Positions 19,397 through 51,633 of a stretch of 58,507 nt of DNA are shown one piece after another. The notes under the pieces were generated by a model. The model did not search any database, was not told where the DNA came from, and saw only the letters and a list, made by a program, of their open reading frames with translations. The position numbers and the translations under genes were made by a program. Source of the DNA: an uncultured bacterium (GTDB lineage Bacteria; Oederibacteriota; Muellerivitia; Muellerivitales; Muellerivitaceae); contig CAZHFP010000001.1 in assembly GCA_964531065.1 (NCBI GenBank), forward strand, positions 8,165 through 66,671. The letters are read 5' to 3'. Within the stretch, counting starts at the first letter, position 1, and every line of letters starts with the position of its first letter.

Positions 19397-19855
19397 ATGG
19401 GAGCACTTTCAGGAATTTTCGCCCCCTTCTCCATAACGGCCTCCGCTTTAACCGCGGAACGTCTCCGGATGGACGTGATATCGAACAACATCGCAAACGC
19501 CAATACCACTAGGACGATGGAGGGCGGCCCCTATGTCCGTCAACGGGTCGTATTCGCTCCGCGCTTTGATCCGACACCCGCTTTCGCGCCGGTTGCGGCG
19601 TTGATGACTCCTGAGGGTCTTCCGGTAGGTGTGCGGGCGGTTGGAATCCAAAAAGATCCCTCTGCGCCGAAAATGGTTTATGATCCGGGCCACCCCGACG
19701 CCAATACGGAAGGTTATGTGGCTTATCCTAATGTGAATATCGTTAATGAAATGGTGGATATGATTTCCGCTACGCGCGCTTATGAAGCCAACATTACTGT
19801 TTTTAACGCGACAAAATCCATGGCGCTTCAAGCCTTGAATATTGGCAAAGCTTAG
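19397..19855 (+). CDS. flgC: Flagellar basal-body rod protein FlgC
   Basis: ISASALTAERLRMDVISNNIANANTTR N-terminal rod motif and the C-terminal EMVDMISATRAYEAN. Confidence 0.9.
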   Translation: MGALSGIFAPFSITASALTAERLRMDVISNNIANANTTRTMEGGPYVRQRVVFAPRFDPTPAFAPVAALMTPEGLPVGVRAVGIQKDPSAPKMVYDPGHPDANTEGYVAYPNVNIVNEMVDMISATRAYEANITVFNATKSMALQALNIGKA

Positions 19856-32479: not shown

Positions 32480-32548
32480 GCCGCTAGGGTTGTGTCAGGA
32501 TTGAAGTGAGACCGGTTGGGGTCCCTATTTTGAGAAACGAGGTTGTTC

Positions 32549-38077: not shown

Positions 38078-38503
38078 ATGCGGGGGAAACCGATGGCGAA
38101 AAAAGAAAAAGACCGTCTTTATTACGAAATCACGAAGGAAAAAGCCTATGGCAATTTCCAAATGTACCTGGTGGGCGGGTCGGCGGGATCGGTTTTAGGA
38201 TTCCTGATCATTTCGTTAGTAGGAGCTTACGAGGGAATGGAGATGGATAGTTTGGTTCTCGCTTTTTTGGTCGCGAGCTTTTTGGGATTTTTCTTCGGCG
38301 TCATGATCATGTGGATCGCGATTACCTATATTGAAAAACTTATTCCAACCTCCAGCCTAACTTCGGGAGGCGTGGACGCGTCAGTCCCGGCGGAAGCGGC
38401 GCCTCTCGCGGAATCGGAAGCCGCACCCAGCGTTGAATCGGAGGAATCCAAGGGTAAATCCGTTGATTTTGTTTTTCCTGAACTTTCGCCCGATAACCAA
38501 TAG
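38078..38503 (+). CDS. Hypothetical small membrane protein between flhG and fliA
   Basis: 141-aa ORF (or from the ATG at 38093). Basic N-terminus, two hydrophobic helices and an acidic Ala/Glu/Ser-rich tail. No recognisable family. Confidence 0.5.
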   Translation: MRGKPMAKKEKDRLYYEITKEKAYGNFQMYLVGGSAGSVLGFLIISLVGAYEGMEMDSLVLAFLVASFLGFFFGVMIMWIAITYIEKLIPTSSLTSGGVDASVPAEAAPLAESEAAPSVESEESKGKSVDFVFPELSPDNQ

Positions 38504-39462: not shown

Positions 39463-40917
39463 ATGCAAGAATTGGTCTTTGTGGAAATCAACGACGATGA
39501 AATGCAGGCGAAGGTAACAGTGGTTCCTCCTCAAGCGGAAACGGACCGGTTCTCCACGGTTGATGATGTTCGTGAAGCCCTCAAGCGGCGGAATGTGGTT
39601 TACGGAGTCGATGAAGCGCGAATGGCGGAAATCTCGGCGAAACTTTCCCAATTCGCGGCCTCTAAAAACATTAATGAACCTATCGAAATGGATATCGCCT
39701 TTGGAACCCCTCTGGCCAATGGGGAAGACGCCCGGGTGGAGTATCTCTATAAAAAAGCTGAAGAGGAAGCTCCCGCGGTAGTGGAGCCGGAAGAAACCGA
39801 GGACGGCCGCATCGATTACAAGGCGGCGCACAAGATCGACAACATCCTAAAGGGTACCCTGCTGGCGCGTAAAATCCCGCCGACCAAGGGCCTGCAGGGC
39901 ATGACCGTGACCGGCAAGGCAACCCAGGCCAAGGATGGGGTGGATATCGAGGTGAAGATCGGAAAGGGCGTAGTTATTTCTCCGTCCAATCCCGATGAGT
40001 ATCTCGCCGACGCGGACGGCCAAGTCATTGTGAAGGATAACAAGATTTCCGTGCTTGCCCTCTACGAGGTTCCGGGTGATGTCAATCTTTCCACCGGTAA
40101 TATTGATTTTATCGGAACGGTCGTGGTTCGGGGCGACGTGAAGGACGGGTTTAAGGTTTTCGCCGGCGAAGATATCATTGTGAATGGGGTTGTGGAAGGG
40201 GCCGAATTAAAGTGCAACGGAAAAATGACGATTGGAGGAGGTGTCAGCGGCAATGATAAAGCGAAAATCACCTGCCCAGGCGACGCGAACATCAAATATA
40301 TCCGAAATGCCACAGTGGATGTTGGCGGAAATTTAACCACGGCCCAGGCCATTATGCACAGTAAGGTCACGGTGGGGAACAAAGTCAATGTCGCCGGTAA
40401 AAAGGGAGTCATCGTCGGAGGACAGGTCATCGCGGGCCGGGAAGTTTTCGCCGCGTCCATGGGTTCCAATTTCGCCACTCCAACCGAGGTCATTGTTGGG
40501 GAAGCGGTGGGGTTACGAGATGAGCTTCAGAAGATGGAAACCGAGCTGAAAGCCGCCGTTGAAAATCTTGATAAAACAAAAAAAGGAATCCAGTTTTTAA
40601 AGGATCTTTCGACCAAAATGGGCGGAGCCCTTCCGCCTGACAAGAAAGAACTGCTGACCAAATTGACGAGGGCTCAGTTTGCCCTGATGGCTTCCACCAA
40701 GTCCTTGGCTGAAAAAAAGCAGGAGGTGGAGAAGAAAGAGCAGGAGGGCGCGGAGGAACGCCGCCGGCACGCGAAAGTTATGTGCATGGGGGTGATTCAT
40801 ACGGGGGTTAAAATAACCATTAATAAGGCCTCCCGGCAAATCTCGGAAGAACTGAAGTATTGTACTTTGACCGAATCGGACGGTGAGGTTAAGGTCGGTC
40901 CGTTTAAAGGTAATTAA
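39463..40917 (+). CDS. fapA: FapA-family (DUF342) flagellar assembly protein
   Basis: Beta-helix repeats (GNIDFIGTVVVRGDVKDGFKVFAGEDIIVNGVVEGAELKCNGKMTIGGGV) and a C-terminal coiled coil are typical of DUF342/FapA. An RBS (AAGGTGGAG) precedes the ATG at 39463. Confidence 0.75.
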   Translation: MQELVFVEINDDEMQAKVTVVPPQAETDRFSTVDDVREALKRRNVVYGVDEARMAEISAKLSQFAASKNINEPIEMDIAFGTPLANGEDARVEYLYKKAEEEAPAVVEPEETEDGRIDYKAAHKIDNILKGTLLARKIPPTKGLQGMTVTGKATQAKDGVDIEVKIGKGVVISPSNPDEYLADADGQVIVKDNKISVLALYEVPGDVNLSTGNIDFIGTVVVRGDVKDGFKVFAGEDIIVNGVVEGAELKCNGKMTIGGGVSGNDKAKITCPGDANIKYIRNATVDVGGNLTTAQAIMHSKVTVGNKVNVAGKKGVIVGGQVIAGREVFAASMGSNFATPTEVIVGEAVGLRDELQKMETELKAAVENLDKTKKGIQFLKDLSTKMGGALPPDKKELLTKLTRAQFALMASTKSLAEKKQEVEKKEQEGAEERRRHAKVMCMGVIHTGVKITINKASRQISEELKYCTLTESDGEVKVGPFKGN

Positions 40918-41040
40918 GCGTGCCGTGATTTTCTTCGAAATCTTCGCGGAAGAGGCTGCTGGCGGGCTTGAGGCTGTTGGTTGGGAATCAAAGGGCGATG
41001 GTATAGACGACAAAAACTCATATTGATATAAGGGCCTGAA

Positions 41041-41703
41041 ATGGATCTGTTTTCAATTCTTCAAATGTTCTTTGACGCTGTTTTTCTTTTCGGGGTTCTG
41101 TTTTTATTTCATTACACGGTCCATCATTCGGAGAAAAAGAAAGAAGAATCCGAAATTTTAAAAAACGTGCAGGTTCAGGAAATGAAGGAAAATCTTCAGG
41201 AACTTTTGCTGACCCTGAAACAGCTGGGGAAGGAAGTTTCCGATAATATTCAGGAGCAGGTGAAAGAAGCTGAGGAAAAAACCGAATTATTTAAAAAGAT
41301 TCTACAGAAGCTCCAAAAGGATTTGAGCAAGACCGTTCGTTTGGCGGAAGAGGTGGGCGCGGAAAAAAACAGATTGGAAGAAAAGTTCAGCGTTATCCAA
41401 ACGGCGAAGTCGAAGGCTTCTCCCGCGTTAAACCCGGCGGAAGACCATCCCTTGAAATCGATGGAAAAAATGAGTTTGGATTTTAAAGACGGGTCTGAAA
41501 ACGGAACAAAATTGGGAAGGGTTCCCAAGCGGTCCGGCCGGGTCGGGGCGGTCGGTTTTTCTTCGTCCCTCGTCCGGGAAGTTTACCGGCTGGTCGATTC
41601 CGAAATGGACATCAATGAGATTATTCGGCGGACAAAATTAAGCCGAGCGGAAGTACAGTTGATTTTAAATTTGCGCGATAATCGCTTCACGACGCCGAAT
41701 TGA
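41041..41703 (+). CDS. Membrane-anchored coiled-coil protein with a C-terminal HTH-like motif (DUF2802/DUF6115-like, flagellar-locus associated)
   Basis: N-terminal TM (FFDAVFLFGVLFLFHY), a Glu/Lys coiled coil, and the C-terminal INEIIRRTKLSRAEVQLILNLR. This resembles the small HTH-like module seen in flagellar-locus DUFs. The family assignment comes from memory only. Confidence 0.45.
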   Translation: MDLFSILQMFFDAVFLFGVLFLFHYTVHHSEKKKEESEILKNVQVQEMKENLQELLLTLKQLGKEVSDNIQEQVKEAEEKTELFKKILQKLQKDLSKTVRLAEEVGAEKNRLEEKFSVIQTAKSKASPALNPAEDHPLKSMEKMSLDFKDGSENGTKLGRVPKRSGRVGAVGFSSSLVREVYRLVDSEMDINEIIRRTKLSRAEVQLILNLRDNRFTTPN

Positions 41704-41755
41704 GAGTGCCGTTTCGCAGGGTTTGAGCTCATGGAACCCGTAAGGATGCCGCGGT

Positions 41756-42412
41756 ATGGAGCGTGTTTTTCCGCTGGGATGGGGAGAGGCTTCGCCGCCG
41801 AGGGGGTCGGGCGTTCTAAATCGTTTTGCCGCCTTGGCTGGAAGCGCCAAGGTTGGTGTGGTCGAAAAGGTAGTGGGGCCCGGAACCTATGTCATTCGAA
41901 TGGATGACGGCGGTTTAGTGGAGGCCCGGGGTCCGAGGACATTGAAGCTGGGAAGTCCGGTGAGCGTTACGGCGCCTGCCGAAAGCGCGAAAGTTTTGGG
42001 ATCGACGGCGGATGCCGCCGTGTCCAACCGTGAGGCGGCGGAAGGCCTCCAGTGGTTCGCTTTGATCCCTCTTGCTTTCGGGGGAAAGAAAGCGGCCGCG
42101 CGTCTGGATGTCTATGTCGAAAAGGAAAAGGAAGGAACCAGGACAAAAGTTGACCCGGCGATTTATTTCGTCTTCACGATTCAAACGGAAGAGTGCGGTG
42201 AAATTCAGTGGAGTATTCATTTGAAGGGGCGCCAGGTGACGCTTCATGTTTTCGCCCGGCCCGGGGATGGGAAAAAAGGATTTTTGAGTCAAATGATCCT
42301 TGAGATTGAGGCGGCCTTGAATAAACGGGGGTTTGTCTTGACGGCGCCGGCCCTTTTGTTGAACCGGCCCTTTAAAGTTCCTACGGGTTTTCGCCTGAAT
42401 GTAAGGGGCTGA
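41756..42412 (+). CDS. Short FliK C-terminal (Flg_hook)-like domain protein
   Basis: 218 aa. LQWFALIPLAFGGKKAAARLDVYV...IQWSIHLKGRQVTLHVFA...EIEAALNKRGF follows the FliK C-terminal pattern (L.P..LG...v.l...v.f.a......L...L...G). It lies next to the FlhB-C paralog. Confidence 0.45.
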   Translation: MERVFPLGWGEASPPRGSGVLNRFAALAGSAKVGVVEKVVGPGTYVIRMDDGGLVEARGPRTLKLGSPVSVTAPAESAKVLGSTADAAVSNREAAEGLQWFALIPLAFGGKKAAARLDVYVEKEKEGTRTKVDPAIYFVFTIQTEECGEIQWSIHLKGRQVTLHVFARPGDGKKGFLSQMILEIEAALNKRGFVLTAPALLLNRPFKVPTGFRLNVRG

Positions 42413-42416
42413 GTCC

Positions 42417-42719
42417 ATGAGTCCTTCTTTGGGGCCTGGGAAGCGCAGAAGTCTGCGGAAAACGGCGGTGGCGATTCAATATGACCGCGCGACGATGCCG
42501 GCTCCCCAGCTGGTGGCGAAGGGGCGTGGGATTGTGGCCGAGAAATTGATAACGATGGCCCGGGAAAATGGGATTCCCATCGTGGAAGATAAGCTGCTGG
42601 TGGAAATGCTGGATAAGTTGAATTTAAATCAGCAGATTCCCGGGGAACTGTACCAGGTGGTCGCTGAGATATTGGTAGCGGTTTATAAGGCGGAGGCCGG
42701 GCTTAAAAAGAGATCTTGA
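42417..42719 (+). CDS. FlhB C-terminal-domain-only paralog (EscU/YscU/HrcU-like, YlqH type)
   Basis: 100 aa. AVAIQYD...APQLVAKGRGIVAEKLITMARENGIPIVEDKLLVEMLD...IPGELYQVVAEILVAVYK aligns with the post-NPTH part of FlhB in this window (VAVALEYK...APVVLAKGERVVAEKIKEMAKKNRIPIVENPPLARAL). Confidence 0.8.
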   Translation: MSPSLGPGKRRSLRKTAVAIQYDRATMPAPQLVAKGRGIVAEKLITMARENGIPIVEDKLLVEMLDKLNLNQQIPGELYQVVAEILVAVYKAEAGLKKRS

Positions 42720-42817
42720 CGGATTCAACAGCGTTGGATTTTAACGCGAGAAGGGTGACTGGAACGGTGCTAAAACAACATCAATTATTGAAAAACCTTT
42801 TTTCCTCAAACCGCAAA

Positions 42818-44905
42818 ATGATTTGGGGGGGATGCGCCCTGGGACTCCAATTATTTTTACTTTCAACGACCCTGGCTTATTCACAAACGCCCCCCGTTTT
42901 CCCTGTTTTTGACCGCAAGGAGACCTTTGGAATTGGACCCCGAGCCATGGGCATGGGGGGAGCCTTCACGGCGGTGGCCGATGACGCCTCGGCGGCCTAT
43001 TGGAACGTGGCCGGATTGGCCCAGCTTTCGGCTTATGAAATATCCATTTCCAGCGCGCCGGTTTATTTCGATGATAAGGTCAATGGCCATCCGGCTTTTG
43101 GGTTCCCCTGGTTCGCCTCCTTGCAGCTAATGCTTCCAGTGGCCAAGGATAACACCTTTGGTATTTCTTATTTCCGCCCCTTCCATCCCCAGAGGGATTT
43201 TTACGCGGGCACGGATGTCGACGCCACATCCCGGCAAGAGGGAAGCTACCTTCAAAACCCAAGTTTCCAGGAGGACGACCTTGTTTTGTCCTACGCGGCG
43301 AGGTTTTCGGGAGTCAAGAATTTTTCGATCGGCTTGAACGTCAAGCGCATCACCAACGACCAATATTACATCCGGTACTTCGGCGATCCTAAATCAACCC
43401 TTGGACAGGAATTGCAAAGCCCCATCCGCGTCATCGGTTTCGGGGTGGACTTGGGGATCTTGTACCGCATTCCCATTACCAAATATTCCGAAGAGTTCCG
43501 TGTGGGCTTATCCTTAAGGGATATGGTGACCACCACGACCTACGCCAATAAATTTACCCTAACCTCGCCCTCCTCCGAGGGCATTACGTTTGGGGAAGGC
43601 TCCGGCTCGGAAGCCTCGGTTGCCCCCGAAATCACCTTGGGAATAGCCTACAAAAATAATTTCCTGTTCAAAGTGCGCAATATTACGGCCTTAGATTTTG
43701 ACCAGATATCATCCGCTAACGTCCCCGGGAACGGCGACAACTTGATCCTTCGTTTCGGGACGGAATTTTGGCTCTTCAGGGATGCTTTAGGGCTCCGGAC
43801 CGGTTATTCGACCTTCCTCAGCCGGCCAGGATTTATGTCCGTGGGTTTGAGCGTCCGGGCGCTCAACGGTGATTTTCAAACCGACTTGGCCTATCTTCTT
43901 CCAGTCGCGCCTTCCGCCAGTGTTTCGGAAGGTTCGGCCATTGGTAATTTGAGCTCGAGCGGGATTAACTTTGAGCCCTTCCAAATTGGAGTGGCCTACC
44001 GCTTTGGCGGCGGGGAAGAGATTCCGCCCGCGAAGGTCAAGGCTTTCGTCCGGCCATCCGCTTTTACGCCCTCCGCCGGTGAAAAGGCGGTTTTTTATTT
44101 GGACACGACTGAGGATGTATCCCTTAATCATTGGAGCGTTTTAATTTACGATCAATCCAACCACTTGGTGAGGGGCCTCCGGGGCATTGGCTCCCCTCCC
44201 ACCAAATTGCTGTGGGGCGGAGAAAATGACCAGTATGAACCCTTGCCGCCGGGAGTTTATACCTGGGCCTTCCAAGTCACGGATCAATTGGACCATGTGG
44301 GTTCCACGCCGGTTCAAACGGTCGAAATATTAGGCCCTTCATCGGCGGAGGCCGTGAAGGATCCCAGCAAGTTAATGGCGATCCGGCAGCAACAAGCCGC
44401 TCTTTTGGTTCAGGAAAGGCAAAAATTAACGGCCCTGGCCCAGCAAAGCCTTAAAGATCTCTTGGGTGTGCCGGAAGCCACGCCCACCACAGCCAACGCG
44501 TCAGCACCCCCCGTGGATGCGTCCGGAAATACCCTGGTTCCGGAGGCTGGCTCGGTGCCTTCTATTGGCTTCAATAATGTCGCAAAAGACCAGGTTTTGA
44601 ATACCCATTTTGATAAGAACCTGGACGGGAACCCGATTCTGGTTGTCAGCTACAAATCCAACCTAACTTTTGTGCCCTATCTCTACCAGGAGGCGGCCGA
44701 AGTCATTAAAACCAGCGTTAATTCGGTTGGAACTGGTTTAAAAGGGATATCGACTCATGTATATTATGGGAAAAATGAGCTTACCCTGGAGACGACAACC
44801 CAGGCCGCGGCTAACTATGCCTCGGGAAAGATCGACCAACTAAAATTGTTACAATTGTCGGATATTAAAATAAACGGCGCGAAGGTAGGACCGAATGGTT
44901 ATTAG
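42818..44905 (+). CDS. Outer-membrane beta-barrel protein (PorV/FadL/UPF0164-like) with an FlgD-Ig-like domain and a C-terminal extension
   Basis: Signal peptide MIWGGCALGLQLFLLSTTLAYSQ. GPRAMGMGGAFTAVADDASAAYWNVAGLA is the PorV/UPF0164-type N-terminal motif, followed by alternating beta-strand patterns to about aa 432. The Ig-like segment (44027-44338) carries PPGVYTWAFQV. A coiled coil and an unknown C-terminal domain follow. TTG at 42716 is an alternative start. Confidence 0.65.
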   Translation: MIWGGCALGLQLFLLSTTLAYSQTPPVFPVFDRKETFGIGPRAMGMGGAFTAVADDASAAYWNVAGLAQLSAYEISISSAPVYFDDKVNGHPAFGFPWFASLQLMLPVAKDNTFGISYFRPFHPQRDFYAGTDVDATSRQEGSYLQNPSFQEDDLVLSYAARFSGVKNFSIGLNVKRITNDQYYIRYFGDPKSTLGQELQSPIRVIGFGVDLGILYRIPITKYSEEFRVGLSLRDMVTTTTYANKFTLTSPSSEGITFGEGSGSEASVAPEITLGIAYKNNFLFKVRNITALDFDQISSANVPGNGDNLILRFGTEFWLFRDALGLRTGYSTFLSRPGFMSVGLSVRALNGDFQTDLAYLLPVAPSASVSEGSAIGNLSSSGINFEPFQIGVAYRFGGGEEIPPAKVKAFVRPSAFTPSAGEKAVFYLDTTEDVSLNHWSVLIYDQSNHLVRGLRGIGSPPTKLLWGGENDQYEPLPPGVYTWAFQVTDQLDHVGSTPVQTVEILGPSSAEAVKDPSKLMAIRQQQAALLVQERQKLTALAQQSLKDLLGVPEATPTTANASAPPVDASGNTLVPEAGSVPSIGFNNVAKDQVLNTHFDKNLDGNPILVVSYKSNLTFVPYLYQEAAEVIKTSVNSVGTGLKGISTHVYYGKNELTLETTTQAAANYASGKIDQLKLLQLSDIKINGAKVGPNGY

Positions 44906-46472
44906 AGTTCTGGCGGCGACTCTTTTAGTTTTTTCCCTTTGCGGTTCGAAGGGATTCGCCGGTGTATTCGATAAAGGCGGTTTTTCGGGTATCGGCGCCA
45001 GGCCGATCGGCTTAGGAGGCGCCTTTTCGACCATCGCGGATTCCGGGGACGCTATTTTCTACAATCCCGCCGGACTGGTGCAGGTCTTACGCCCCGAAGT
45101 TTCGGGAATGGGCGCTGTCCTCGCCAACGGAAAAGAAGACCAATTTGAATTGGCCTATGTCCAGCCCTTTGGGGATCAATTGGCTTGGGCCTTCGCGATG
45201 CAGCAGTTGTCGTTCAATGACATTTCCCAAAATGAGCGGATCTTTTACGGAACCTTCGCCACTCCCTTGGCGATCGATAAATCGATATCTTTCGGCGTCA
45301 ACATCAAGCTTTTGTCGGTTGATTCCTCTTCGCCCGGTTTCCAGGCCAGTGGGCTGGGGTTGGATATGGGTTTTCTATACCACCTTCCCATCTTAAACCC
45401 CCGCTACGGAAAGCAGATCAACCTGGGGTTGTCGGCCGAGGACCTGGATACCAAAATCAAATGGCAAGCTGGAAACGAAGACCAAATTCCCTTGCGGGTC
45501 CGGGGCGGGTTCAGCTACGAGTTTACGGATGACCTCGTGACGGCTTTTGAATTTTCCGATTTTAACGACCCCAATTTGGGCGCGCACCACACCCTGCTTT
45601 TGGCCGGCATTGAAGGATGGTTTTTTGAGGATCAATTAGGGTTGCGGACCGGCTATGCGGCTTTTCAAACACTGGATGGGCAGTTTACCGCTGGCATCAG
45701 CTATCGGTCGAAAACTTGGGGAATTGACTATGCTTATATCGGCCACGCGCAATTCTTAGGTTCTTCCCACCGCATCTCCGCCAATTGGCGGTTCGGCGAT
45801 TCTTTCCTGGGGAAAGTGAAAAGCTTTATTCCGGAGGGCGTAACGGCCTATGTCGAAGGGGATATTATTACTTTAAGGTGGAACAACTCGCCGTCGCTTT
45901 CCTTGGCGGGCTACAACGTTTATTTCAGCAAAACCACCGGCAGCGGCTATGTTAAAATCAATCAAAAGGCCATCAAGGCGAATTATTATTCCTTGCGCGG
46001 TTTGGAAAAAAACACCAAGTATTATTTTGTCGTCAGTTCGGTGACGAACACCATACCTCCGGTTGAAAGCCAATATTCCCGCGAAATTTTCGCCGGAACC
46101 ACGGCCGCTCCGGGCGCTCCTGTGGTGGTCCAAAGCGATGTTCAAAGTGAAGGGGTGATCGACATCGCCAAAATGGTGGGAATGGCTGGTTTTCCTGATC
46201 CTGCCAAAAGTAATTTAAAGGGTTATAATATTTACCTCTCAGAGGTATCGGGAGGCCGGTTTGACAAGGTCAATGTTCAACCCCTCGCCAATCTACCGAC
46301 TTATCTGGTGCGAAAGTTAAAAGTCGGCCAGAAATACTTCTTTACCTTTACCTCCGTTGGATTGGATGGCTCGGAAAGCGCCCACTCCAGGGAATCGGGC
46401 GTCGTGGCCTTGCCTTATAGCGCGGTTATTCAGTCGTCTGGAACTAATGCCGCTCAACCTGCAGCCAAGTAA
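44895..46472 (+). CDS. Outer-membrane beta-barrel protein (paralog of the upstream gene) with two C-terminal fibronectin type III-like domains
   Basis: Signal/lipobox-like MVIRVLAATLLVFSLCGS. GARPIGLGGAFSTIADSGDAIFYNPAGL and shared strands (GLGLDMGFLYHLPI, LGLRTGYAAF) show paralogy to 42818-44905. FN3-like segments (LRWNNSP...GYNVYFS...YYFVVSSV; GYNIYLSE...YFFTFTSV) span about 45825-46412. It overlaps the upstream gene by 11 nt. Confidence 0.65.
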   Translation: MVIRVLAATLLVFSLCGSKGFAGVFDKGGFSGIGARPIGLGGAFSTIADSGDAIFYNPAGLVQVLRPEVSGMGAVLANGKEDQFELAYVQPFGDQLAWAFAMQQLSFNDISQNERIFYGTFATPLAIDKSISFGVNIKLLSVDSSSPGFQASGLGLDMGFLYHLPILNPRYGKQINLGLSAEDLDTKIKWQAGNEDQIPLRVRGGFSYEFTDDLVTAFEFSDFNDPNLGAHHTLLLAGIEGWFFEDQLGLRTGYAAFQTLDGQFTAGISYRSKTWGIDYAYIGHAQFLGSSHRISANWRFGDSFLGKVKSFIPEGVTAYVEGDIITLRWNNSPSLSLAGYNVYFSKTTGSGYVKINQKAIKANYYSLRGLEKNTKYYFVVSSVTNTIPPVESQYSREIFAGTTAAPGAPVVVQSDVQSEGVIDIAKMVGMAGFPDPAKSNLKGYNIYLSEVSGGRFDKVNVQPLANLPTYLVRKLKVGQKYFFTFTSVGLDGSESAHSRESGVVALPYSAVIQSSGTNAAQPAAK

Positions 46473-46482
46473 GGAGATTTAG

Positions 46483-47268
46483 ATGCCTAGTGGACTTTAC
46501 ATAGCGGCCTCGGGAATGGATTCGACCATCACCCGGGAAAACGTCATCGCCAATAACTTGGCCAACTCGAGCACCGTTGGGTTCAAGCAAAACCGGGCGG
46601 TGGACATCGCGTTTCCAACTTATATGATCGCCCGCCTCCACGACCAGAAGATGAAAGTGATGGACGGAACCGCGGAACTGCGCCCCAATATCGGGTTCAT
46701 GGGCGGGGGCGTGATCCCTCAGGAAGTCGCCACCGATTATTCACAAGGGTCCCGGCTTGAAACTAAAAATCCCCTCGATTTCGCCCTAACGGGCCCCGGT
46801 TTTTTCACGGTCCTGTCGCCGGAAGGAAAAACTTATTTGACCCGGGCGGGGAGCTTCAGTTTGGATGCTAATGGAACGCTCGTGACTCAGGACGGGCTTC
46901 CGGTGATGGGCCATAACGGCGAGATCACCATTGATGGTTCCACCGTTTCGGCGGACGAAGAGGGAAATCTCACGGTCGATGGAAAGGCCCAGGACCAGCT
47001 GCTCGTCGTCAAGGTCAAGGATCAAAACCAGCTTTTCAAAGTAGGCCATTCGCTGTTCGAGGCGACGCCTCAAAATAAAATCGACATGTCGCCGGACGAT
47101 ATCCAGGTTCAACAGGGTTTTTTGGAACAGTCCAACGTGAATTCGATCACGGAAATGGTCAATATGATTGAAGTGCAAAGGTCTTACGAGCAGAACGCGA
47201 AAATCATTTCAATGTATGACCAGGTGCTGGGAGAAGCTTCGTCCCAGATTGGGTCGTTGAGGGCTTAA
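46483..47268 (+). CDS. flgF: Flagellar basal-body rod protein FlgF (FlgG-like)
   Basis: GLYIAASGMDSTITRENVIANNLANSSTVGFK N-terminus and LEQSNVNSITEMVNMIEVQRSYEQNAK C-terminus. Confidence 0.85.
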   Translation: MPSGLYIAASGMDSTITRENVIANNLANSSTVGFKQNRAVDIAFPTYMIARLHDQKMKVMDGTAELRPNIGFMGGGVIPQEVATDYSQGSRLETKNPLDFALTGPGFFTVLSPEGKTYLTRAGSFSLDANGTLVTQDGLPVMGHNGEITIDGSTVSADEEGNLTVDGKAQDQLLVVKVKDQNQLFKVGHSLFEATPQNKIDMSPDDIQVQQGFLEQSNVNSITEMVNMIEVQRSYEQNAKIISMYDQVLGEASSQIGSLRA

Positions 47269-47427
47269 GCGCTGGACCCGCCGGGCCGAAAGGCTTGACG
47301 GGAGTGTCGTAAAACGGCCGGACTGCAAAGCGGAGGCCGTTCTCACTGCCGAACGATAGACGCGGTGAAAAAATCGGGAACCAAAGTTGAAGTAAAGCTT
47401 ACGGTTCGCGAATCTTGAGGAGGCTTT

Positions 47428-48219
47428 ATGCAGTCTTTGTACACGGCAGCGACGGGAATGCAGGCGCAAAGTTTAAACATTGATACCATCTCCAACAATC
47501 TCGCCAACGTCAGCACCAACGGCTTTAAAAAACAGCGGGTGGACTTTCAGGATCTTTTGTACCTGAACCTGAAACCTTCCGGCACGCCCACCTCTCCTGA
47601 GACGAATGTTCCGGTCGGCATTCAAGTCGGCGAAGGCGTCAAGCCGGTCGACACGAAGCGTATTTTTACCCAGGGAAGCATCTCCAACACCAATAATCCG
47701 CTGGACCTGTTGATTGAGGGCGATGACAGCTTTTTCAAAGTTGTCCAGCCGGATGGCCAAACCGTTTTCACCCGTGACGGGTCCTTTACCCGGGATGGAA
47801 ATGGAAACGTGGTTAACGCGGACGGTTATTTCATGGACCCGCCGATTCAGATTCCCGGGGACGCCTCGCTCGTTCAAGTTACCCAAGACGGCAGGGTCAT
47901 GGTCACGACCGCCGGACAAACCCAGCCGGCCCAGGTGGGCCAATTGGAATTAGCCCGTTTCGTGAACCCGGCGGGATTAACAGCTCTTGGTCACAATAAT
48001 TTCGAGACCACGGCCGCGTCCGGCGATCCCATTGAAGGGACTCCCGGCTCGGTAGGGTTCCCGTCCCTCCAGCAGGGTTCGCTGGAATTGTCCAACGTGG
48101 ATGTGGTCACCGAAATGGTTAATTTGATCGTCGCTCAGCGTTCCTACGAGATTAATTCGAAGGCGGTCACGACATCGGATCAAATGATGCAGACGGCTAC
48201 GACTATGGTTACTTTGTAA
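47428..48219 (+). CDS. flgG: Flagellar distal rod protein FlgG
   Basis: MQSLYTAATGMQAQSLNIDTISNNLANVSTNGFKKQRVDFQDLLY and LELSNVDVVTEMVNLIVAQRSYEINSK. GAGGAGG RBS. Confidence 0.95.
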   Translation: MQSLYTAATGMQAQSLNIDTISNNLANVSTNGFKKQRVDFQDLLYLNLKPSGTPTSPETNVPVGIQVGEGVKPVDTKRIFTQGSISNTNNPLDLLIEGDDSFFKVVQPDGQTVFTRDGSFTRDGNGNVVNADGYFMDPPIQIPGDASLVQVTQDGRVMVTTAGQTQPAQVGQLELARFVNPAGLTALGHNNFETTAASGDPIEGTPGSVGFPSLQQGSLELSNVDVVTEMVNLIVAQRSYEINSKAVTTSDQMMQTATTMVTL

Positions 48220-48226
48220 TTCATTG

Positions 48227-49210
48227 ATGATCCGAAAAATTTTTAATATTGGTTTTTTGTTTTTTTTCTGCCTTCATTCTTGGCTTTGGGCTGAGGTGAA
48301 TCAGTCGGTTTTGATCCGGCTGCCGGAAAAGGCGACTGTGGTTGGGCCCGAACTGGCCTTGGGCCAGGTGGCCGAAGTCATCGGTGAAAACAAGATGGTG
48401 CTTGAAAAGGTCCGCCGGTTGAGCTTGGGAAGGGCGGCTCTGGCGGGAAATGTCCTGAAGGTGACCCCGGGATTCATCAAGATCAAGCTCCGCCAAGAAG
48501 GCTATTCTTTGAAGGATTTTTCTTTCGAGGGGGTTGAGACCACGGAGGTTCTCACCCAGAGTGTTCAAATGTCGACGGCCGATCTGCTGCCTGAGGTGAA
48601 GGCTTTTGTGCTGAAGGAATTGCGGGAGTCGCCGGAGAACGTGGAAGTCCGGCTGGCGGGTCCCGAAAAAAAAATGATGCTGCCTGCCGGCGATTTGAAA
48701 ACAACCTTTCGGCCCCCTCTCTCGGGTAAATTCGAGGGGACTTTGCTCTTGACCAGTGAGCTGGAAGTGGACGGCCGTTTGGCGAAAGTACTGCCCTTAA
48801 GGGTCGTGGTGGAGGTTTATCATCCGGTGGTGGTCGCCCAAAAGGGCGTGGAAAAAGGGGACAAGTTTACCCGGGAAAATGTGGCGCTGGTGAGGAAACC
48901 CACTTCGGCGCTCTTGTCGGGTTCCATTGACCAACTCAGCAGTGTGCTGGGAAGAACCGCGGGGGCCCCGCTGGCGCCCGGAACGGTTCTGCGCATGACC
49001 CAGATTTACGATCCGCCGGTGGTGAAACATGGGGATCTTTTGGAGGCGGTGGTACGCCGGGGAAACGTGGAAATCACCGTCCAGGTCCGGGCCGTGGAAG
49101 ACGGCAAGGCCGGGGACAGGATCCGGGTAGAGAACACGGAGTCGCATAAGGTTTTGGCTGGCAAGGTTTTGGATGAGAAAACGGTCTTGGTCGAACAGGG
49201 CGAGCCGTAG
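48227..49210 (+). CDS. flgA: Flagellar P-ring assembly chaperone FlgA
   Basis: Signal peptide, a SAF-like domain, and the C-terminal GD.L...V.RG.VEITVQVRAVEDGKAGDRIRVEN... typical of FlgA. Confidence 0.8.
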   Translation: MIRKIFNIGFLFFFCLHSWLWAEVNQSVLIRLPEKATVVGPELALGQVAEVIGENKMVLEKVRRLSLGRAALAGNVLKVTPGFIKIKLRQEGYSLKDFSFEGVETTEVLTQSVQMSTADLLPEVKAFVLKELRESPENVEVRLAGPEKKMMLPAGDLKTTFRPPLSGKFEGTLLLTSELEVDGRLAKVLPLRVVVEVYHPVVVAQKGVEKGDKFTRENVALVRKPTSALLSGSIDQLSSVLGRTAGAPLAPGTVLRMTQIYDPPVVKHGDLLEAVVRRGNVEITVQVRAVEDGKAGDRIRVENTESHKVLAGKVLDEKTVLVEQGEP

Positions 49211-49231: not shown

Positions 49232-49840
49232 ATGAAAAAAAGTTTACTCGTTTTATTCATCGGCTTGGCCGCTTTCGCGCCCGGCCAAAACTTAAGGGCT
49301 GATTCGCTTTATCCAGTCGAGGGATCAAGCTCGGTTTATACCGAGAAGCGGGCAAGGCGCGTGGGCGACGTGATCACGGTGATGATCCAGGAAACCAACC
49401 AGGCTACCAACGCCGCCAGCAGCAACGACCAGAAGTCTGGAAGTGTTGTGGTCGGCGCCGGTTCCGGATTTTTGGGCTCCAGCTTTTTAAACAGCAACAC
49501 AACCGGTAACATCGGCCTTGGCGGCGGCACCTCCCATCAGGGGCAGGGAACCTCCAGCCGGAGTTCGAACGTGACGGGGCAAATGACGGCGAAAATCATA
49601 TCCGTGCTTCCCAGCGGGAACTACCTGATCGAGGGAAGCCGATATGTCGAAGTAAATGACGAGAAACAAACCATTGATGTGACGGGAGAAATCCGGCCCG
49701 ATGATATTTCGAGCGATAACACAGTTGTGTCGACTCGGGTCGCCAACGCGAGAATTAAGTTCACGGGAACCGGTCCGGCGTCGGAAACGGCCAAGCCGGG
49801 TCTTTTAACCAGGGTCTTGGGCTGGCTGGGGCTCTTTTAG
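49232..49840 (+). CDS. flgH: Flagellar L-ring protein FlgH
   Basis: SLYP....SVYTEKRARRVGDVITVMIQE and GNYLIEGSRYVEVNDEKQTIDVTGEIRPDDI motifs. The signal peptide has no lipobox Cys. Confidence 0.9.
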   Translation: MKKSLLVLFIGLAAFAPGQNLRADSLYPVEGSSSVYTEKRARRVGDVITVMIQETNQATNAASSNDQKSGSVVVGAGSGFLGSSFLNSNTTGNIGLGGGTSHQGQGTSSRSSNVTGQMTAKIISVLPSGNYLIEGSRYVEVNDEKQTIDVTGEIRPDDISSDNTVVSTRVANARIKFTGTGPASETAKPGLLTRVLGWLGLF

Positions 49841-49857
49841 AAAATGGGAGAATGCGC

Positions 49858-50976
49858 ATGAAAATTAAAAATTTATCCTTAAATCTTACGGTCGCTCTTT
49901 TGGTTTTAATGGGGGCCGCCTTTTCCAGCGCAGCTCAGGTCCGTTTGAAAACCATTGCCAAGGTGAAGGGTGTCCGGGAGAACCAATTGATTGGATACGG
50001 ATTGGTCGTGGGTCTTCAACGAACAGGGGACACCCAAAGGGTGGTTTCCACCCTGCAAAGCATCACCAACATGCTTTCTCAATTTGGAATCGCGATCAGT
50101 CCCTCCCAAATCCGGACTCAAAACGTGGGAGCCGTCATGGTGACGGCCCAATTGCCGGCCCTTTTGAAATCCGGGGATAAGATTGACGTAACGGTTTCTT
50201 CCATCGGCGACGCTCGAAGCCTTCAAGGCGGGACTTTATTAATGACGCCTCTTCAGGGGCCGGACGGACAGGTTTATGCCGTGGCCCAAGGGCCTTTGGC
50301 CGTGGGGGGCTTCAGCGATAATTCTGGGGAGTTTCCCTTAATTCAAGTTAATCACACGACCGCGGGCCGGGTTCCCAACGGAGCCTTAGTGGAAAGGGAG
50401 GTTCCCTCAACGTTTGTCGATAATGACACCGTTTCCATTCTTTTGGATAAGCCGGATTTTGGACAAGCCTCCATGGCGGCCCAGGCCCTTAACCAGCAGT
50501 TTGGCGAACCGGTGGCCCGGGCGGTTGACGGCGGGCAGATTGATGTGAAGATTCCCCATAACTACCAGGATAATGTCGTGGAATTCGTCGCGGCGGTGGA
50601 AGACACGGCGGTCATGACCGACGCTCCGTCCAACCGAGTTGTTGTCAATGAAAGAACGGGAACCGTGGTCTTGGGCCAGGATGTCCGGATTGACGGATTG
50701 GCCATCGCCCACGGAAACTTAAGATTGGTCGTCAAGAAAACGACTCAAGTGAGCCACGACGCGGTTTTTGGCCACGATGAGTTAACCCATTCGACAACGG
50801 TTTCGGTGGATGATTCGGGCAAAAAGGGGAATCTGGTGGTCTTGCCGGAAGGCGCCACCTTGATTGATGTGGTGGAAGCCATTAACGCGGTGGGGGCCAC
50901 GCCCCGGGATTTGATCTCGATTCTCCAAGCCATTAAAGAAGAAGGCGCTTTGCACGCCGAGCTGGATATTATCTAA
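49858..50976 (+). CDS. flgI: Flagellar P-ring protein FlgI
   Basis: RLKTIAKVKGVRENQLIGYGLVVGLQRTGD and LLMTPLQGPDGQVYAVAQGPLAVGG motifs. ATG at 49852 is an alternative start. Confidence 0.95.
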   Translation: MKIKNLSLNLTVALLVLMGAAFSSAAQVRLKTIAKVKGVRENQLIGYGLVVGLQRTGDTQRVVSTLQSITNMLSQFGIAISPSQIRTQNVGAVMVTAQLPALLKSGDKIDVTVSSIGDARSLQGGTLLMTPLQGPDGQVYAVAQGPLAVGGFSDNSGEFPLIQVNHTTAGRVPNGALVEREVPSTFVDNDTVSILLDKPDFGQASMAAQALNQQFGEPVARAVDGGQIDVKIPHNYQDNVVEFVAAVEDTAVMTDAPSNRVVVNERTGTVVLGQDVRIDGLAIAHGNLRLVVKKTTQVSHDAVFGHDELTHSTTVSVDDSGKKGNLVVLPEGATLIDVVEAINAVGATPRDLISILQAIKEEGALHAELDII

Positions 50977-51121: not shown

Positions 51122-51162
51122 ATAGGTTTTTGCTTGAGTCTCTTAATCATAAGGACGACATA

Positions 51163-51633
51163 ATGGGTTTTTCAATTCAACCAACATCCCTAATGCCCTT
51201 GCCCCTCTCCATGGACGCGAAGGGTTTTCCGGTTCAAGCCCTGCAACAGGCCTTGTCGCTCCAGCCGTCCTTAGGTTCCGCGGCGGCGGGTCAGGCGATG
51301 GGTTTGCCCTCCTCCGGACCGTCATTACCGTTGGATTTGAAGCCCTCCGCTTTAAATCCGCTCAAGGGTCCCGCTGTTCATTCGGACGCGGAGCTTAAAA
51401 AGGTTTCCAAAAATTTCGAATCGATTTTTATGAGAATGCTTTTTAAGGAGATGCGGAACTCGGTCCAGAAATCCGACGTGTTTGGAAGTTCCCGAGCGAT
51501 GGAATTTTTCGAGAACATGCAGGACGAACAATTATCCGAAAGTCTGGCTTCGGCGGGCGGATTGGGCATCGGCAACATGATTTACCAGAAACTCAAGGCC
51601 TCCACCGTCCCCCACCAGAAAACGTTTAGTTGA
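51163..51633 (+). CDS. flgJ: FlgJ-like rod-binding domain protein (no muramidase domain)
   Basis: ELKKVSKNFESIFMRMLFKEMRNSV...FFENMQDEQLSESLASAGGLGIGNMIYQKL matches the Rod_binding domain. AAGGA RBS precedes the ATG at 51163. Confidence 0.75.
   Translation: MGFSIQPTSLMPLPLSMDAKGFPVQALQQALSLQPSLGSAAAGQAMGLPSSGPSLPLDLKPSALNPLKGPAVHSDAELKKVSKNFESIFMRMLFKEMRNSVQKSDVFGSSRAMEFFENMQDEQLSESLASAGGLGIGNMIYQKLKASTVPHQKTFS

Follow-up and report, generated by a model that had tools for sequence, protein, structure and literature searches.

PorV/FadL-like barrels heading the flagellar rod and ring genes of FCPU426/Goldbacteria: a probable outer-membrane anchor or collar of the motor

Layout of the barrel genes in the flagellar operon

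Why should two outer-membrane barrels be encoded among flagellar rod and ring genes? In the window, a stretch of 58,507 nucleotides from an uncultured bacterium, two consecutive genes (barrel 1 and barrel 2) had been predicted to lie within a co-directional flagellar operon. The layout bears this out, with an FlhB-C-like gene on the 5' side and flgF-flgG-flgA-flgH-flgI-flgJ on the 3' side (Table 1). According to the ORF list, the two barrel genes, both on the + strand, overlap by 11 nt, and a gap of 10 nt separates the barrel 2 stop from the flgF start (46483). These six genes occur in identical order as an outer-membrane module in the diderm Firmicutes, the flgF-flgG-flgA-flgH-flgI-flgJ 'diderm' cluster (PMC5007114). 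In FCPU426/Goldbacteria, in contrast, the two barrel genes stand at the head of the module, which thereby becomes an eight-gene unit.

Residues of barrel 1 are numbered here from ATG 42818, the start given in the original prediction. The true start is probably further upstream, since a positively charged n-region (NRK) precedes the Met at 42818 and the translation from TTG 42716 agrees with the N-terminus of an orthologue (P0002). This TTG overlaps the stop of the preceding gene as TTGA. The signal peptides of both proteins were assigned by eye. Orthologues of barrel 1 show a hydrophobic stretch followed by ...AYSQ or AxA, and the signal peptides of barrel 2 orthologues finish with AxA/FDKGG.

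Table 1. Features of the barrel genes and of the adjoining flagellar genes (window positions; a slash marks the cleavage site)
Feature	Position	Strand	Basis
flhB_rel, FlhB C-terminal-domain-only gene	42417..42719	+	Bac_export_2 E 7.7e-21; TIGR00789 E 1.6e-25
Barrel 1 gene, longest ORF from TTG	42716..44905	+	ORF list; orthologue N-termini compared
Barrel 1 signal-peptide hydrophobic core and AYS/Q cleavage site	42818..42886	+	MIWGGCALGLQLFLLSTTLAYS/Q; by eye
Barrel 1 N-terminal hatch motif GPRAMGMGGAF..ADD..A..WN.AGL	42929..43033	+	Conservation; invariant columns M46-L67
Barrel 1 14-strand beta-barrel, residues 73-396	43034..44005	+	AF2; Foldseek; PorV_fam E 4.9e-20
Barrel 1 Ig-like (FlgD_ig-type) beta-sandwich	44027..44338	+	AF2 strands 408-504, pLDDT about 90
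Barrel 1 single long helix, residues 516-549	44363..44464	+	AF2
Barrel 1 disordered Pro/Ala/Thr-rich linker, ~40 aa	44465..44569	+	pLDDT <50 at residues 549-579
Barrel 1 C-terminal ~110-aa alpha/beta orphan domain	44570..44902	+	AF2 pLDDT 85-92
Barrel 2 gene	44895..46472	+	ORF list
Barrel 2 signal peptide	44895..44963	+	MVIRVLAATLLVFSLCGSKGFAG/VFDKGG; by eye
Barrel 2 N-terminal hatch motif including FadL-type NPAG	44964..45095	+	Invariant G29..G60, N57-P58-A59-G60
Barrel 2 compact 14-strand barrel, residues 68-300	45096..45794	+	AF2; Foldseek; PorV_fam E 3.7e-22
Barrel 2 FN3 domain 1	45831..46100	+	Pfam fn3 E 9.4e-9, residues 313-385; AF2 strands 314-401
Barrel 2 FN3 domain 2	46152..46412	+	AF2 strands 420-504; tandem-FN3 Foldseek matches
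flgF (rod)	46483..47268	+	Flg_bb_rod, LlgE_F_G_D1, Flg_bbr_C
flgG (distal rod)	47428..48219	+	Pfam
flgA (P-ring chaperone)	48224..49210	+	ChapFlgA E 1.5e-24
flgH (L-ring)	49232..49840	+	FlgH E 1.3e-48
flgI (P-ring)	49852..50976	+	FlgI E 1e-128
flgJ-like rod-binding protein	51130..51633	+	Rod-binding E 2e-14

Fold, appendages and conservation of the two proteins

The two proteins had been described as paralogues, each a PorV/FadL-like barrel with Ig or FN3 domains appended, and profiles, AlphaFold models and fold searches all agree with this description. Their best profile is the NCBIfam family PorV_fam (NF033709), at 72 bits for barrel 1 and 79 bits for barrel 2, both under its cutoff of 90 bits; against the PorV, PorQ and PorV2 equivalog profiles they score 21-50 bits, far below cutoffs of 220-325. 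One barrel 1 orthologue (P0046) is named 'PorV/PorQ family protein' by NCBI. The AlphaFold2 models (mean pLDDT 78 for each) contain 14 long strands apiece. For both barrels the best PDB matches in Foldseek are the PorV chains 8gl6_F and 6h3i_F (E 6e-11 to 4e-10, TM (target) 0.63-0.66; barrel 2 on 6h3i_F E 4e-10, rmsd 3.9 over 328 columns), followed by FadL, TbuX and TodX. HMM cross-scores make barrel 1 and barrel 2 each other's nearest relatives.

The N-terminal motif reads GPRAMGMGGAFTAVADDASAAYWNVAGL in the translation of barrel 1 and GARPIGLGGAFSTIADSGDAIFYNPAGL in that of barrel 2. Both share the strand motif LGLRTGY, accompanied by GVDLGILYRIPI in barrel 1 and GLDMGFLYHLPI in barrel 2, and the final strand of barrel 2 terminates with ..WRF-G. 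The hatch is the best-conserved part of barrel 1 (identity 87% in the main tier, 69% in the distant tier) and reaches 78% and 57% in barrel 2. The predicted surface loops are long and variable in barrel 1, where L4 and L5 show just 27-30% identity in the main tier, and very short in barrel 2 (4-18 aa).

Toluene_X, UPF0164 and TraF_2 were matched in 20-30 of the 49 barrel 1 family members. The FadL/TodX/TbuX channels and Treponema UPF0164 belong to the same superfamily and share the NPA(G) hatch motif, with fold matches to FadL/TodX/TbuX at E about 1e-8. Compared with these channels, however, the present barrels are much smaller (about 235 aa for the 14 strands of barrel 2), carry added C-terminal domains, and have no fatty-acid or aromatic-degradation context.

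Behind its barrel, barrel 1 carries an Ig-like sandwich for which FlgD_ig gives only E 0.18 in the window protein; the same profile is matched in 20 of the 49 family members, with a best E of 1.9e-6. The following helix is possibly a coiled coil, judging from the model. What had been taken for a ~150-aa domain is resolved by AF2 into the disordered linker and the alpha/beta domain of Table 1. The profile of this orphan domain has no PDB or Pfam match, and it finds only 25 matches among 1.84 billion representatives, all of them fragments or at the C-terminus of barrel-1-like proteins of 650-770 aa; the domain is restricted to the barrel 1 family. The two FN3-like domains predicted for barrel 2 are borne out by the fn3 profile match and by two FN3 folds in the AF2 model, and the first of them matches PDB 3mpc (E 8e-6). 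A 14-strand barrel has both termini on the periplasmic side, so the C-terminal appendages of the two proteins would hang beneath the outer membrane. All of them are predicted to be periplasmic and not surface-exposed, as judged from topology and from relatives bearing peptidoglycan-binding OmpA, LysM and SPOR domains in the same position.

Barrel 1 has about 75 clusters of full-length orthologues, with identities of 51-80%. Barrel 2 orthologues show 57-89%, falling to 36-42% in the deep tiers, and one (P0121) is 100% identical to the window protein. Identity in the Ig domain falls from 76% in the main tier to 41% in the distant one, and the identity of the predicted periplasmic Ig (76%) and FN3 (72-78%) domains equals or exceeds that of the barrel. 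In two deep loci (L009 and L012) the identity to the window is 39% for barrel 2 and 27-29% for barrel 1, against 40% for FlgF, 37-41% for FlgH and 22-23% for FlgA. By these sequence comparisons barrel 2 changes at much the same slow rate as FlgF and FlgH.

Linkage to flagellar genes across lineages

The original prediction had named two outcomes that would speak against a flagellar role, namely orthologues without any flagellar neighbours or orthologues that invariably adjoin T9SS genes. A neighbourhood survey of the orthologues instead favours the flagellar link. Wherever downstream DNA suffices, the pair lies directly 5' of flgF-flgG(-flgA-flgH-flgI), with L019 (P0195, deep lineage, 36% identity) as the sole exception, where no flgF was found within 1.2 kb downstream. 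The order barrel 1-barrel 2-flgF-flgG-flgA-flgH-flgI is identical in seven of the eight GTDB species loci, the eighth being cut, and the pair also precedes the flagellar genes in the metagenome loci L020-L023 and L025, in the deep clade L009, L012 and L027-L030, and in L018. The linkage spans three deep lineages with GC contents of 40-69%; the deep loci show 44-49% identity to the window in FlgI and 48-59% in FlgG. Four upstream contexts are observed, namely the flhB-C-like gene in the main tier, TPR and a 493-aa protein (L009), mutL-miaA (L012) and isocitrate dehydrogenase (L027). The FlhB-C-terminal-like gene was not found 5' of the pair in the latter three loci and is confined to the main FCPU426 tier.

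As a control, no flagellar match was obtained in any of 67 generic PorV-like loci, which together cover 607 kb and of which 35 are 8 kb or longer. A cousin barrel with one FN3 domain (P0077, L100) has non-flagellar genes downstream, and PorV-like barrels fused to Ig, FN3, TPR, OmpA, LysM or SPOR domains occur outside flagellar loci as well; the architecture by itself is therefore not flagellum-specific. Flagellar genes are present in Goldbacteria and absent from their sister clades, Firestonebacteria and Elusimicrobia (PMC7031533). To be noted, gene linkage is evidence of shared function or regulation, not of a structural role.

A possible role at the L/P-rings and its alternatives

We consider it moderately probable that the pair consists of tandem-duplicated 14-strand barrels of the PorV/FadL superfamily, recruited in FCPU426/Goldbacteria as dedicated parts of the flagellar outer-membrane module. 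Because the pair stands in front of the rod and L/P-ring genes throughout this lineage, it probably represents a novel type of anchor or collar for the motor in the outer membrane. Judging from their signal peptides, the PorV_fam matches, the AF2 models and the Foldseek results, both proteins would take the Sec route and end up as barrels in the outer membrane. The Ig domain, helix, linker and orphan domain of barrel 1 and the FN3 pair of barrel 2 would then extend below the membrane. The overlapping or 10-nt-spaced genes in conserved order suggest that the barrels are produced jointly with the distal rod, FlgA, FlgH and FlgI. Next to the L/P-rings they would form an anchor or collar embedded in the membrane, with their periplasmic domains contacting the ring, peptidoglycan or each other, so that the bushing would be fixed in the outer membrane and the membrane protected during rotation. 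A disk or collar around the L-ring, as the original prediction proposed, would be one possible form of it; the results have no bearing on the sheath anchor that the prediction also named.

In proteobacteria, the lipid anchor of FlgH ties the L-ring to the membrane. The FlgH of the window has no cysteine anywhere and is thus not a lipoprotein; a lipobox is absent from FlgH in all lineages examined, and the orthologue N-termini finish with ..A/DS(L/I)(Y/W)P. The barrels may supply the membrane anchoring in place of this lipid.

Lineage-specific additions to the L/P-rings are known from the Vibrio H-ring (FlgO, FlgP, FlgT), the Campylobacterota basal disk (FlgP) and H. pylori FapH, all with genes close to flagellar ones; they tie the motor to the outer membrane and keep the envelope intact (PMC13521929, PMC11756786). 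By analogy, the barrel pair most likely works like these accessories, and the best reading is a lineage-specific basal-body accessory embedded in the outer membrane, which would play a part like that of the H-ring or basal disk with proteins of another family. Pfam, NCBIfam and Foldseek searches show no sequence or fold relation between the two groups. The known H-ring and basal-disk components are either lipoproteins or soluble in the periplasm, with an N-terminal lipid as anchor (PMC13521929), whereas the anchor here would be an integral beta-barrel, next to an FlgH itself non-lipidated. That a FadL/PorV-type barrel can serve another outer-membrane machine as a permanent structural component, and not as a transporter, has a precedent in the 14-strand BamG of the Bacteroidota BAM complex (PMC12578637), and BAM chains (9n2d_B, 9hiv_F, 9hjm_F) are among the barrel 1 Foldseek matches. 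BamG differs in that it serves another machine, has no periplasmic Ig/FN3 appendages and binds surface lipoproteins with its extracellular loops.

The pair could instead be transient assembly factors that leave once their work is done. By thinning or remodelling the outer membrane, or by chaperoning FlgH oligomers, they would let the non-lipidated L-ring insert and the rod and hook penetrate the membrane. The operon and conserved linkage shared with the P-ring chaperone gene flgA and the missing lipid anchor of FlgH would suit such a role, as would the lateral wall opening of FadL-family barrels and their place beside the insertion machinery in the Bacteroidota BAM (PMC12578637). We nevertheless regard this as rather unlikely, since barrel 2 is conserved like the structural FlgF and FlgH and well above the chaperone FlgA in the deep clade, and the large conserved periplasmic Ig and FN3 modules suit a scaffold better.

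PorV binds its cargo with surface loops, and the present barrels share with PorV (LptO) and PorQ of the T9SS, themselves partner barrels of a large outer-membrane machine, the best profile, the best folds and the hatch G.R..GMGGA...AD...A...NPAGL. They might accordingly be shuttles or anchors for T9SS-like CTD proteins, or FadL-like channels for hydrophobic molecules given the retained NPAG motif, merely riding in the operon. The lineage appears to have CTD-type cargo, as the C-terminus of the GH116 protein (1780-5571) weakly matches the T9SS type A sorting domain TIGR04183 (E 0.0017, 18 bits, below the 23-bit cutoff). A FadL homologue of H. pylori, hp0839, whose locus number follows that of the motor accessory gene fapH (hp0838), has been discussed as an outer-membrane homeostasis factor (PMC12472139). 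Yet the scores fall far short of the PorV, PorQ and PorV2 equivalog cutoffs, and PorV lacks the C-terminal Ig/helix/orphan or FN3-FN3 extensions. The surface loops of the pair are tiny or poorly conserved while the periplasmic domains are conserved. No T9SS gene adjoins the pair in the loci examined, a separate PorV/PorQ paralogue adjoins a Por_Secre_tail protein elsewhere in an FCPU426 genome, which weakens the hitchhiking shuttle, and hitchhiking would not predict a linkage to flgFGAHI that persists over four upstream contexts and deep divergence when ordinary PorV-like loci have none. The T9SS shuttle is disfavoured, and this whole explanation is improbable.

Very improbable, finally, is a general tether between the outer membrane and peptidoglycan or periplasm, co-regulated with flagella for envelope stability and placed outside the motor. 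Related barrels (P0082, P0209, P0215, P0230, P0086) do carry OmpA, LysM, SPOR or TPR fusions in non-flagellar loci, and the 40-aa linker could be long enough to bring the orphan domain of barrel 1 to the cell wall, but no peptidoglycan-binding domain was recognised in barrel 1 or barrel 2. The tight conserved position between export-gate and rod/ring genes and the family-restricted orphan domain both point to a specific partner.

Gene layout around the two barrel genes

The window carries one long co-directional flagellar supercluster on the forward strand, and two genes for outer-membrane barrels (barrel 1 and barrel 2) are embedded in it (see the table). The gene positions in the original prediction, the 11-nt overlap between the two genes and the 10-nt gap before flgF are all exact in the ORF list, and both translations show the proposed N-terminal and strand motifs. 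Barrel 1 probably starts upstream of the ATG at 42818, because a charged signal-peptide n-region (NRK) precedes this Met. Translation from the TTG at 42716 aligns with the N-terminus of the orthologue P0002, and a gene starting there would share bases with the stop codon of the FlhB-C-like gene (TTGA). A promoter and terminator scan of 40900-47500 gives counts equal to the shuffled expectation, with no terminator at the gene junctions of this region, and no sigma-28 or sigma-54 motif is recognized by eye in the 98-nt stretch 42720-42817. From the arrangement of the genes, the pair would be co-transcribed with the rod and L/P-ring genes.

Features of the window, in order along the forward strand
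Feature	Position (nt)	Strand	Content or source
GH116 protein	1780-5571		
461-aa protein	6758-8143		
GAF-GAF-GGDEF diguanylate cyclase	16104-18251		
Supercluster, first block	flgC at 19397	+	flgC, fliF, fliG, fliH, fliI, fliJ, motA, motB, fliL, fliM, fliN/Y, fliO, fliP, fliR, flhB, flhA, flhF, flhG
Full flhB	32543-33619	+	
Supercluster, second block		+	141-aa membrane protein, fliA, fapA, DUF2802 protein, 218-aa ORF, FlhB-C-terminal-domain-only gene
141-aa membrane protein	38078-38503	+	
218-aa ORF	within 41756-42719	+	
Supercluster, third block		+	barrel 1 and barrel 2, between the FlhB-C-like gene and flgF
Barrel 1	42716/42818-44905	+	ORF list
Barrel 2	44895-46472	+	ORF list
Supercluster, last block		+	flgF, flgG, flgA, flgH, flgI, flgJ-like, YvyF-type protein, flgN, flgK, 984-aa FliK-like protein
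flgH	49232-49840	+	
984-aa FliK-like protein	55306-58260	+	

Other genes of the window are also worth recording. The 218-aa ORF shows a faint match to the FliK C-terminal domain (Flg_hook, E 0.056) and is followed by the FlhB C-terminal-domain-only gene (TIGR00789); together they look like a second, split hook-length/export-switch pair beside the full flhB. The 984-aa protein is unusually long for FliK, and its sole match is the FliK hook-length-control domain at residues 855-931. The 141-aa predicted membrane protein between flhG and fliA has no family match, and its position is kept in all FCPU426 loci at 44-77% identity. Just upstream of the supercluster, the GAF-GAF-GGDEF protein may give c-di-GMP control of motility. 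The 461-aa protein matches two families, the Hvo_1808 surface proteins (NF038145, E 1e-33, below cutoff) and the putative metallopeptidases of DUF6782.

Fold and appendages of the barrel pair

Both proteins are divergent members of the PorV/FadL superfamily. Against the NCBIfam PorV/PorQ subfamily model NF033709 (326 positions), barrel 1 scores 72.4 bits (E 4.9e-20, model 10-310) and barrel 2 scores 79.3 bits (E 3.7e-22, model 11-325), a significant homology over nearly the full model, yet under the curated cutoff of 90 bits. The PorV equivalog scores of 21.3 bits (barrel 1) and 28.3 bits (barrel 2) are far under the cutoff of 250 bits (NF033710). The PorV2 scores of 50.2 and 31.9 bits are likewise under their cutoff (NF052325, 325 bits), as is the 28.6 bits of barrel 2 for PorQ (NF033711, 220 bits), which barrel 1 does not match. 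One orthologue is labelled "PorV/PorQ family protein" by NCBI. A single-sequence PDB search returns nothing for barrel 1 and only FN3 matches for barrel 2; since it is uninformative on the barrels, a fold search on models was needed. The AlphaFold2 models, for which 49 and 51 homologues were aligned, have a mean pLDDT of 78 and 14 long strands each. For both, the top Foldseek match in the PDB is PorV of the SprA-PorV translocon (8gl6_F, 6h3i_F), with E 6e-11 to 4e-10 and TM (target) of 0.63-0.66 (rmsd 3.9 for barrel 2), followed by FadL, TbuX and TodX and then by the FadL-like BamG chains of the Bacteroidota BAM. A 14-strand FadL-type fold nearest to PorV is thus found in both models, and the predicted assignment to PorV/FadL-like barrels is correct at the superfamily level, with scores below the cutoffs for PorV membership.

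The FadL relationship is also visible in the hatch, the conserved N-terminal motif. In barrel 2 the NPA hatch residues N57-P58-A59-G60 are invariant or nearly so; in barrel 1 N63, A65 and G66 are invariant, and the window protein has Val instead of P. Toluene_X (PF03349) is not matched by the window barrels in Pfam up to E 1 and is weakly matched by 20 of the 49 barrel 1 family members (best 1.5e-6). That the two barrels are paralogous, as was predicted, is borne out by HMM cross-scores between their families, with medians of 118 and 128 bits; generic PorV-like proteins score mostly at or below 71 and up to 123. Because each HMM scores the other family above the generic proteins, the two are each other's closest paralogues, which would fit an old tandem duplication.

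Behind its last strand (...AYRF-GGG), the barrel 1 model contains an Ig sandwich (residues 408-504), a 34-residue helix, a disordered linker of ~40 residues and an alpha/beta domain of ~110 aa that is modelled with confidence. In barrel 2, ...WRF-G is followed by two FN3 domains, recognized by Pfam, the PDB search, AlphaFold2 and Foldseek. The Ig-like and FN3 appendages of the original prediction are therefore present. Its unplaced ~150-aa domain of barrel 1 is really the linker plus the ~110-aa domain, and the latter lacks a PDB or Pfam relative, with only chance-level profile matches. When 1.84 billion representative proteins are searched exhaustively with its profile, the ~110-aa domain turns up only 25 times, always at the C-terminus of 650-770-aa proteins with the barrel 1 architecture, or in fragments. 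FlgD_ig is matched at E 0.18 in the window protein and at E 0.01 or better in 20 of the 49 family members, and for two members the T9SS CHU_C C-terminal domain is matched in its place. A link of the Ig domain to FlgD (hook cap) was considered and rejected, as it is a generic sandwich and similar barrel-plus-Ig proteins occur in non-flagellar loci; the FlgD N-terminal domain is absent from barrel 1 and its family in profile searches.

The chain of a 14-strand barrel begins and ends on the periplasmic side, and the appendages of both proteins are accordingly predicted to be periplasmic. This is supported by homologous barrels in which the place of the appendages at the C-terminus is taken by TPR domains or by domains that bind peptidoglycan (OmpA, LysM or SPOR), as in P0082, P0213, P0209, P0215, P0230, P0086 and others. 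Within the main tier of close FCPU426 relatives, conservation is highest in the hatch motifs (78-87% identity), the Ig domain (76%) and the FN3 domains (72-78%); in barrel 1 it is lowest in the predicted surface loops L4 and L5 (27-30%). With strand 1 taken as outward, barrel 2 has predicted surface loops of just 4-18 aa. The constraint thus sits on the periplasmic side. C-terminal fusions of PorV-like barrels to OmpA, LysM, SPOR, TPR, Ig or FN3 domains recur across many uncultured lineages (P0082 at L015 10001-11632; P0213, P0209, P0215, P0230, P0086-P0097), which suggests that a barrel anchor plus a periplasmic module is a general architecture.

Linkage to rod and ring genes in related lineages

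The phyletic range of the pair is narrow. Its close relatives are genomes of candidate division FCPU426, whose 16S cluster was placed with Goldbacteria by Doud et al. (PMC7031533); in that study flagellar genes are present in Goldbacteria and not in the sister clades Firestonebacteria and Elusimicrobia. In the deep clade of related loci (L009, L012, L027-L030), the best named relatives of the L012 MutL are Candidatus Goldbacteria at 52-54% identity, followed by a drop to 40%, which approximately places L012 in Goldbacteria. The barrel 2 family includes at least four deep lineages: the main tier (57-100% identity to the window), the deep clade (~40%, and 48-89% among its own members), P0184 (42%) and P0195 (36%). 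Between the window and the deep clade, identity is 39% for barrel 2, 40% for FlgF, 37-41% for FlgH, 48-54% for FlgG and 48-49% for FlgI; it is 27-29% for barrel 1 and 22-23% for FlgA. Judged by these values, barrel 2 evolves like a structural ring or rod protein.

The neighbourhood survey that had been proposed gives a consistent picture. The order barrel 1, barrel 2, flgF, flgG, flgA, flgH, flgI is intact in 7 of the 8 GTDB species loci, and the eighth contig ends inside the pair. In the deep clade and in L018, a further deep locus, the pair again lies immediately before flgF-flgG, and flgA, flgH and flgI come next wherever the contig extends. FlgI of these deep loci is only 44-49% identical to the window protein, and their GC content ranges from 40% to 69%. 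The upstream neighbours vary: L009 has TPR proteins and a 493-aa protein there, L012 has mutL-miaA, L027 has isocitrate dehydrogenase, and the main tier has the FlhB-C-like gene. As the downstream order holds, the conserved unit is barrel 1, barrel 2 and flgFGAHIJ. These six flg genes form the "diderm" flagellar module of diderm Firmicutes (PMC5007114), whereas here two barrel genes stand in front of them. As a control, 67 ordinary PorV-like barrel loci from the metagenome scan (25-32% identity; 607 kb in total, with 35 loci of 8 kb or more) were searched with the flagellar proteins of the window, and none of the 67 has a match. By comparative genomics including this negative control, the flagellar association of the pair is strongly supported.

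The exception is L019, a 3-kb contig of the P0195 lineage with a barrel-ending ORF, a barrel 2-like gene and a small membrane protein, and no flgF in the remaining 1.2 kb. Its barrel 2 lineage (L019 47-1805, 65% GC) is the most divergent one, and the upstream ORF ends like a bare barrel (...DLSYGF*). This locus would be either a variant arrangement or a non-flagellar offshoot. P0077, a barrel with one FN3 domain and a TPR-like tail, has non-flagellar genes downstream. Ahead of the pair in L009 (261-7554) are an SLT lytic transglycosylase, a SPOR protein, a 324-aa FlgD_ig protein on the opposite strand, two TPR proteins and two unannotated proteins, which may be further periplasmic motor accessories. 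A 493-aa upstream gene common to L009 and L027 was rejected, the L027 ORF being a spurious high-GC frame.

Possible roles at the outer membrane

Flagellar motors of different lineages differ mainly in the accessory rings around a conserved core. Salmonella FlgH is tethered to the outer membrane by a lipid. In Vibrio, too, N-terminal lipidation ties each of FlgH, FlgO and FlgP to the outer membrane (PMC13521929). FlgH of the window has no cysteine and no lipobox, and the FlgH signal peptide in nearly all related loci (L001-L012, L020-L030) ends in ...A|DS(L/I)(Y/W)P without a lipobox. FlgH of FCPU426/Goldbacteria-type loci is thus probably not lipidated. The L-ring, if so, would be without a lipid anchor, which would make barrels from the same operon an obvious substitute; the loss of the anchor may be tied to the pair.

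Two secreted PorV-type barrels with 14 modelled strands and conserved Ig/helix/orphan and FN3-FN3 modules are encoded in a tightly packed, conserved unit that also includes the genes of the distal rod and the L/P-ring. The pair is likely to have some dedicated function in the flagellum, probably as a lineage-specific motor accessory from a protein family not previously tied to flagella. We somewhat favour a permanent structural part of the motor, in which the pair would assemble next to the L/P-ring as an anchor or collar embedded in the outer membrane. A collar role is plausible and would be analogous to that of the H-ring in Vibrio, the basal disk in Campylobacterota and FapH in H. pylori, the last of which keeps the outer membrane tight while the motor turns (PMC11756786). 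For the sheath anchor of the original prediction, nothing pertinent is seen in the data. The likeness would be one of role and not of homology, as the pair has no match to FlgO, FlgP, FlgT or FapH in Pfam, NCBIfam, PDB and Foldseek searches. More tentatively, the barrels could form a stoichiometric outer-membrane ring around a non-lipidated L-ring, with the Ig and FN3 domains building a periplasmic cage.

A transient role, in which the pair assists assembly of the L-ring or penetration of the outer membrane, seems unlikely. The original prediction also offered PorV-like shuttles for CTD cargo such as the GH116 protein, and it is quite improbable that the pair rides in the operon as a T9SS-like shuttle or as a FadL-like channel. 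The GH116 protein (1263 aa; DUF608, E 8e-88; ~500 extra C-terminal residues) does have a weak match to the T9SS type A sorting domain at its C-terminal end (TIGR04183, E 0.0017, 18 bits, below the cutoff of 23), and the FCPU426 lineage may have CTD-type sorting. However, no T9SS component (SprA/Sov, PorU, PorZ, PorK-N) or CTD cargo is found beside the pair in the window and all related loci. The natural candidate for such sorting would be P0085, a 589-aa PorV/PorQ paralogue in a non-flagellar locus (L013 10001-12385) of the FCPU426 genome GCA_040756875.1, where the next gene downstream encodes a 192-aa protein that weakly matches Por_Secre_tail. Furthermore, PorV of the T9SS binds the CTD signal via its extracellular loops, and the periplasmic constraint on the pair is the opposite of what a cargo-binding PorV predicts. 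A general envelope tether is very improbable.

To our knowledge, every addition to the motor that is coupled to the outer membrane is a lipoprotein or a soluble protein of the periplasm. Should the pair be a motor accessory, it would be one built from integral PorV/FadL-type barrels and a novel structural means of securing the bushing in the outer membrane. The PorV family would then serve envelope machines in general as a docking barrel, in flagella as well as in the T9SS and the Bacteroidota BAM, and the almost unstudied FCPU426/Goldbacteria lineage would gain a first functional handle on its cell-envelope biology. If the ring around the L-ring exists, it would be the first flagellar motor anchored in the outer membrane by beta-barrel proteins instead of lipoproteins, and the partner barrel of one rotary envelope machine (T9SS) would be reused by another (the flagellum). 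Our full-text literature search found no paper that links PorV or FadL barrels to flagellar structure, or that treats flagella of FCPU426 or Goldbacteria beyond gene presence. A FadL-type barrel as a fixed subunit of another outer-membrane machine is known from BamG (PMC12578637). The FadL homologue hp0839 of H. pylori is discussed solely as an outer-membrane homeostasis factor (PMC12472139); by its locus tag, this gene would adjoin the motor accessory gene fapH (hp0838).
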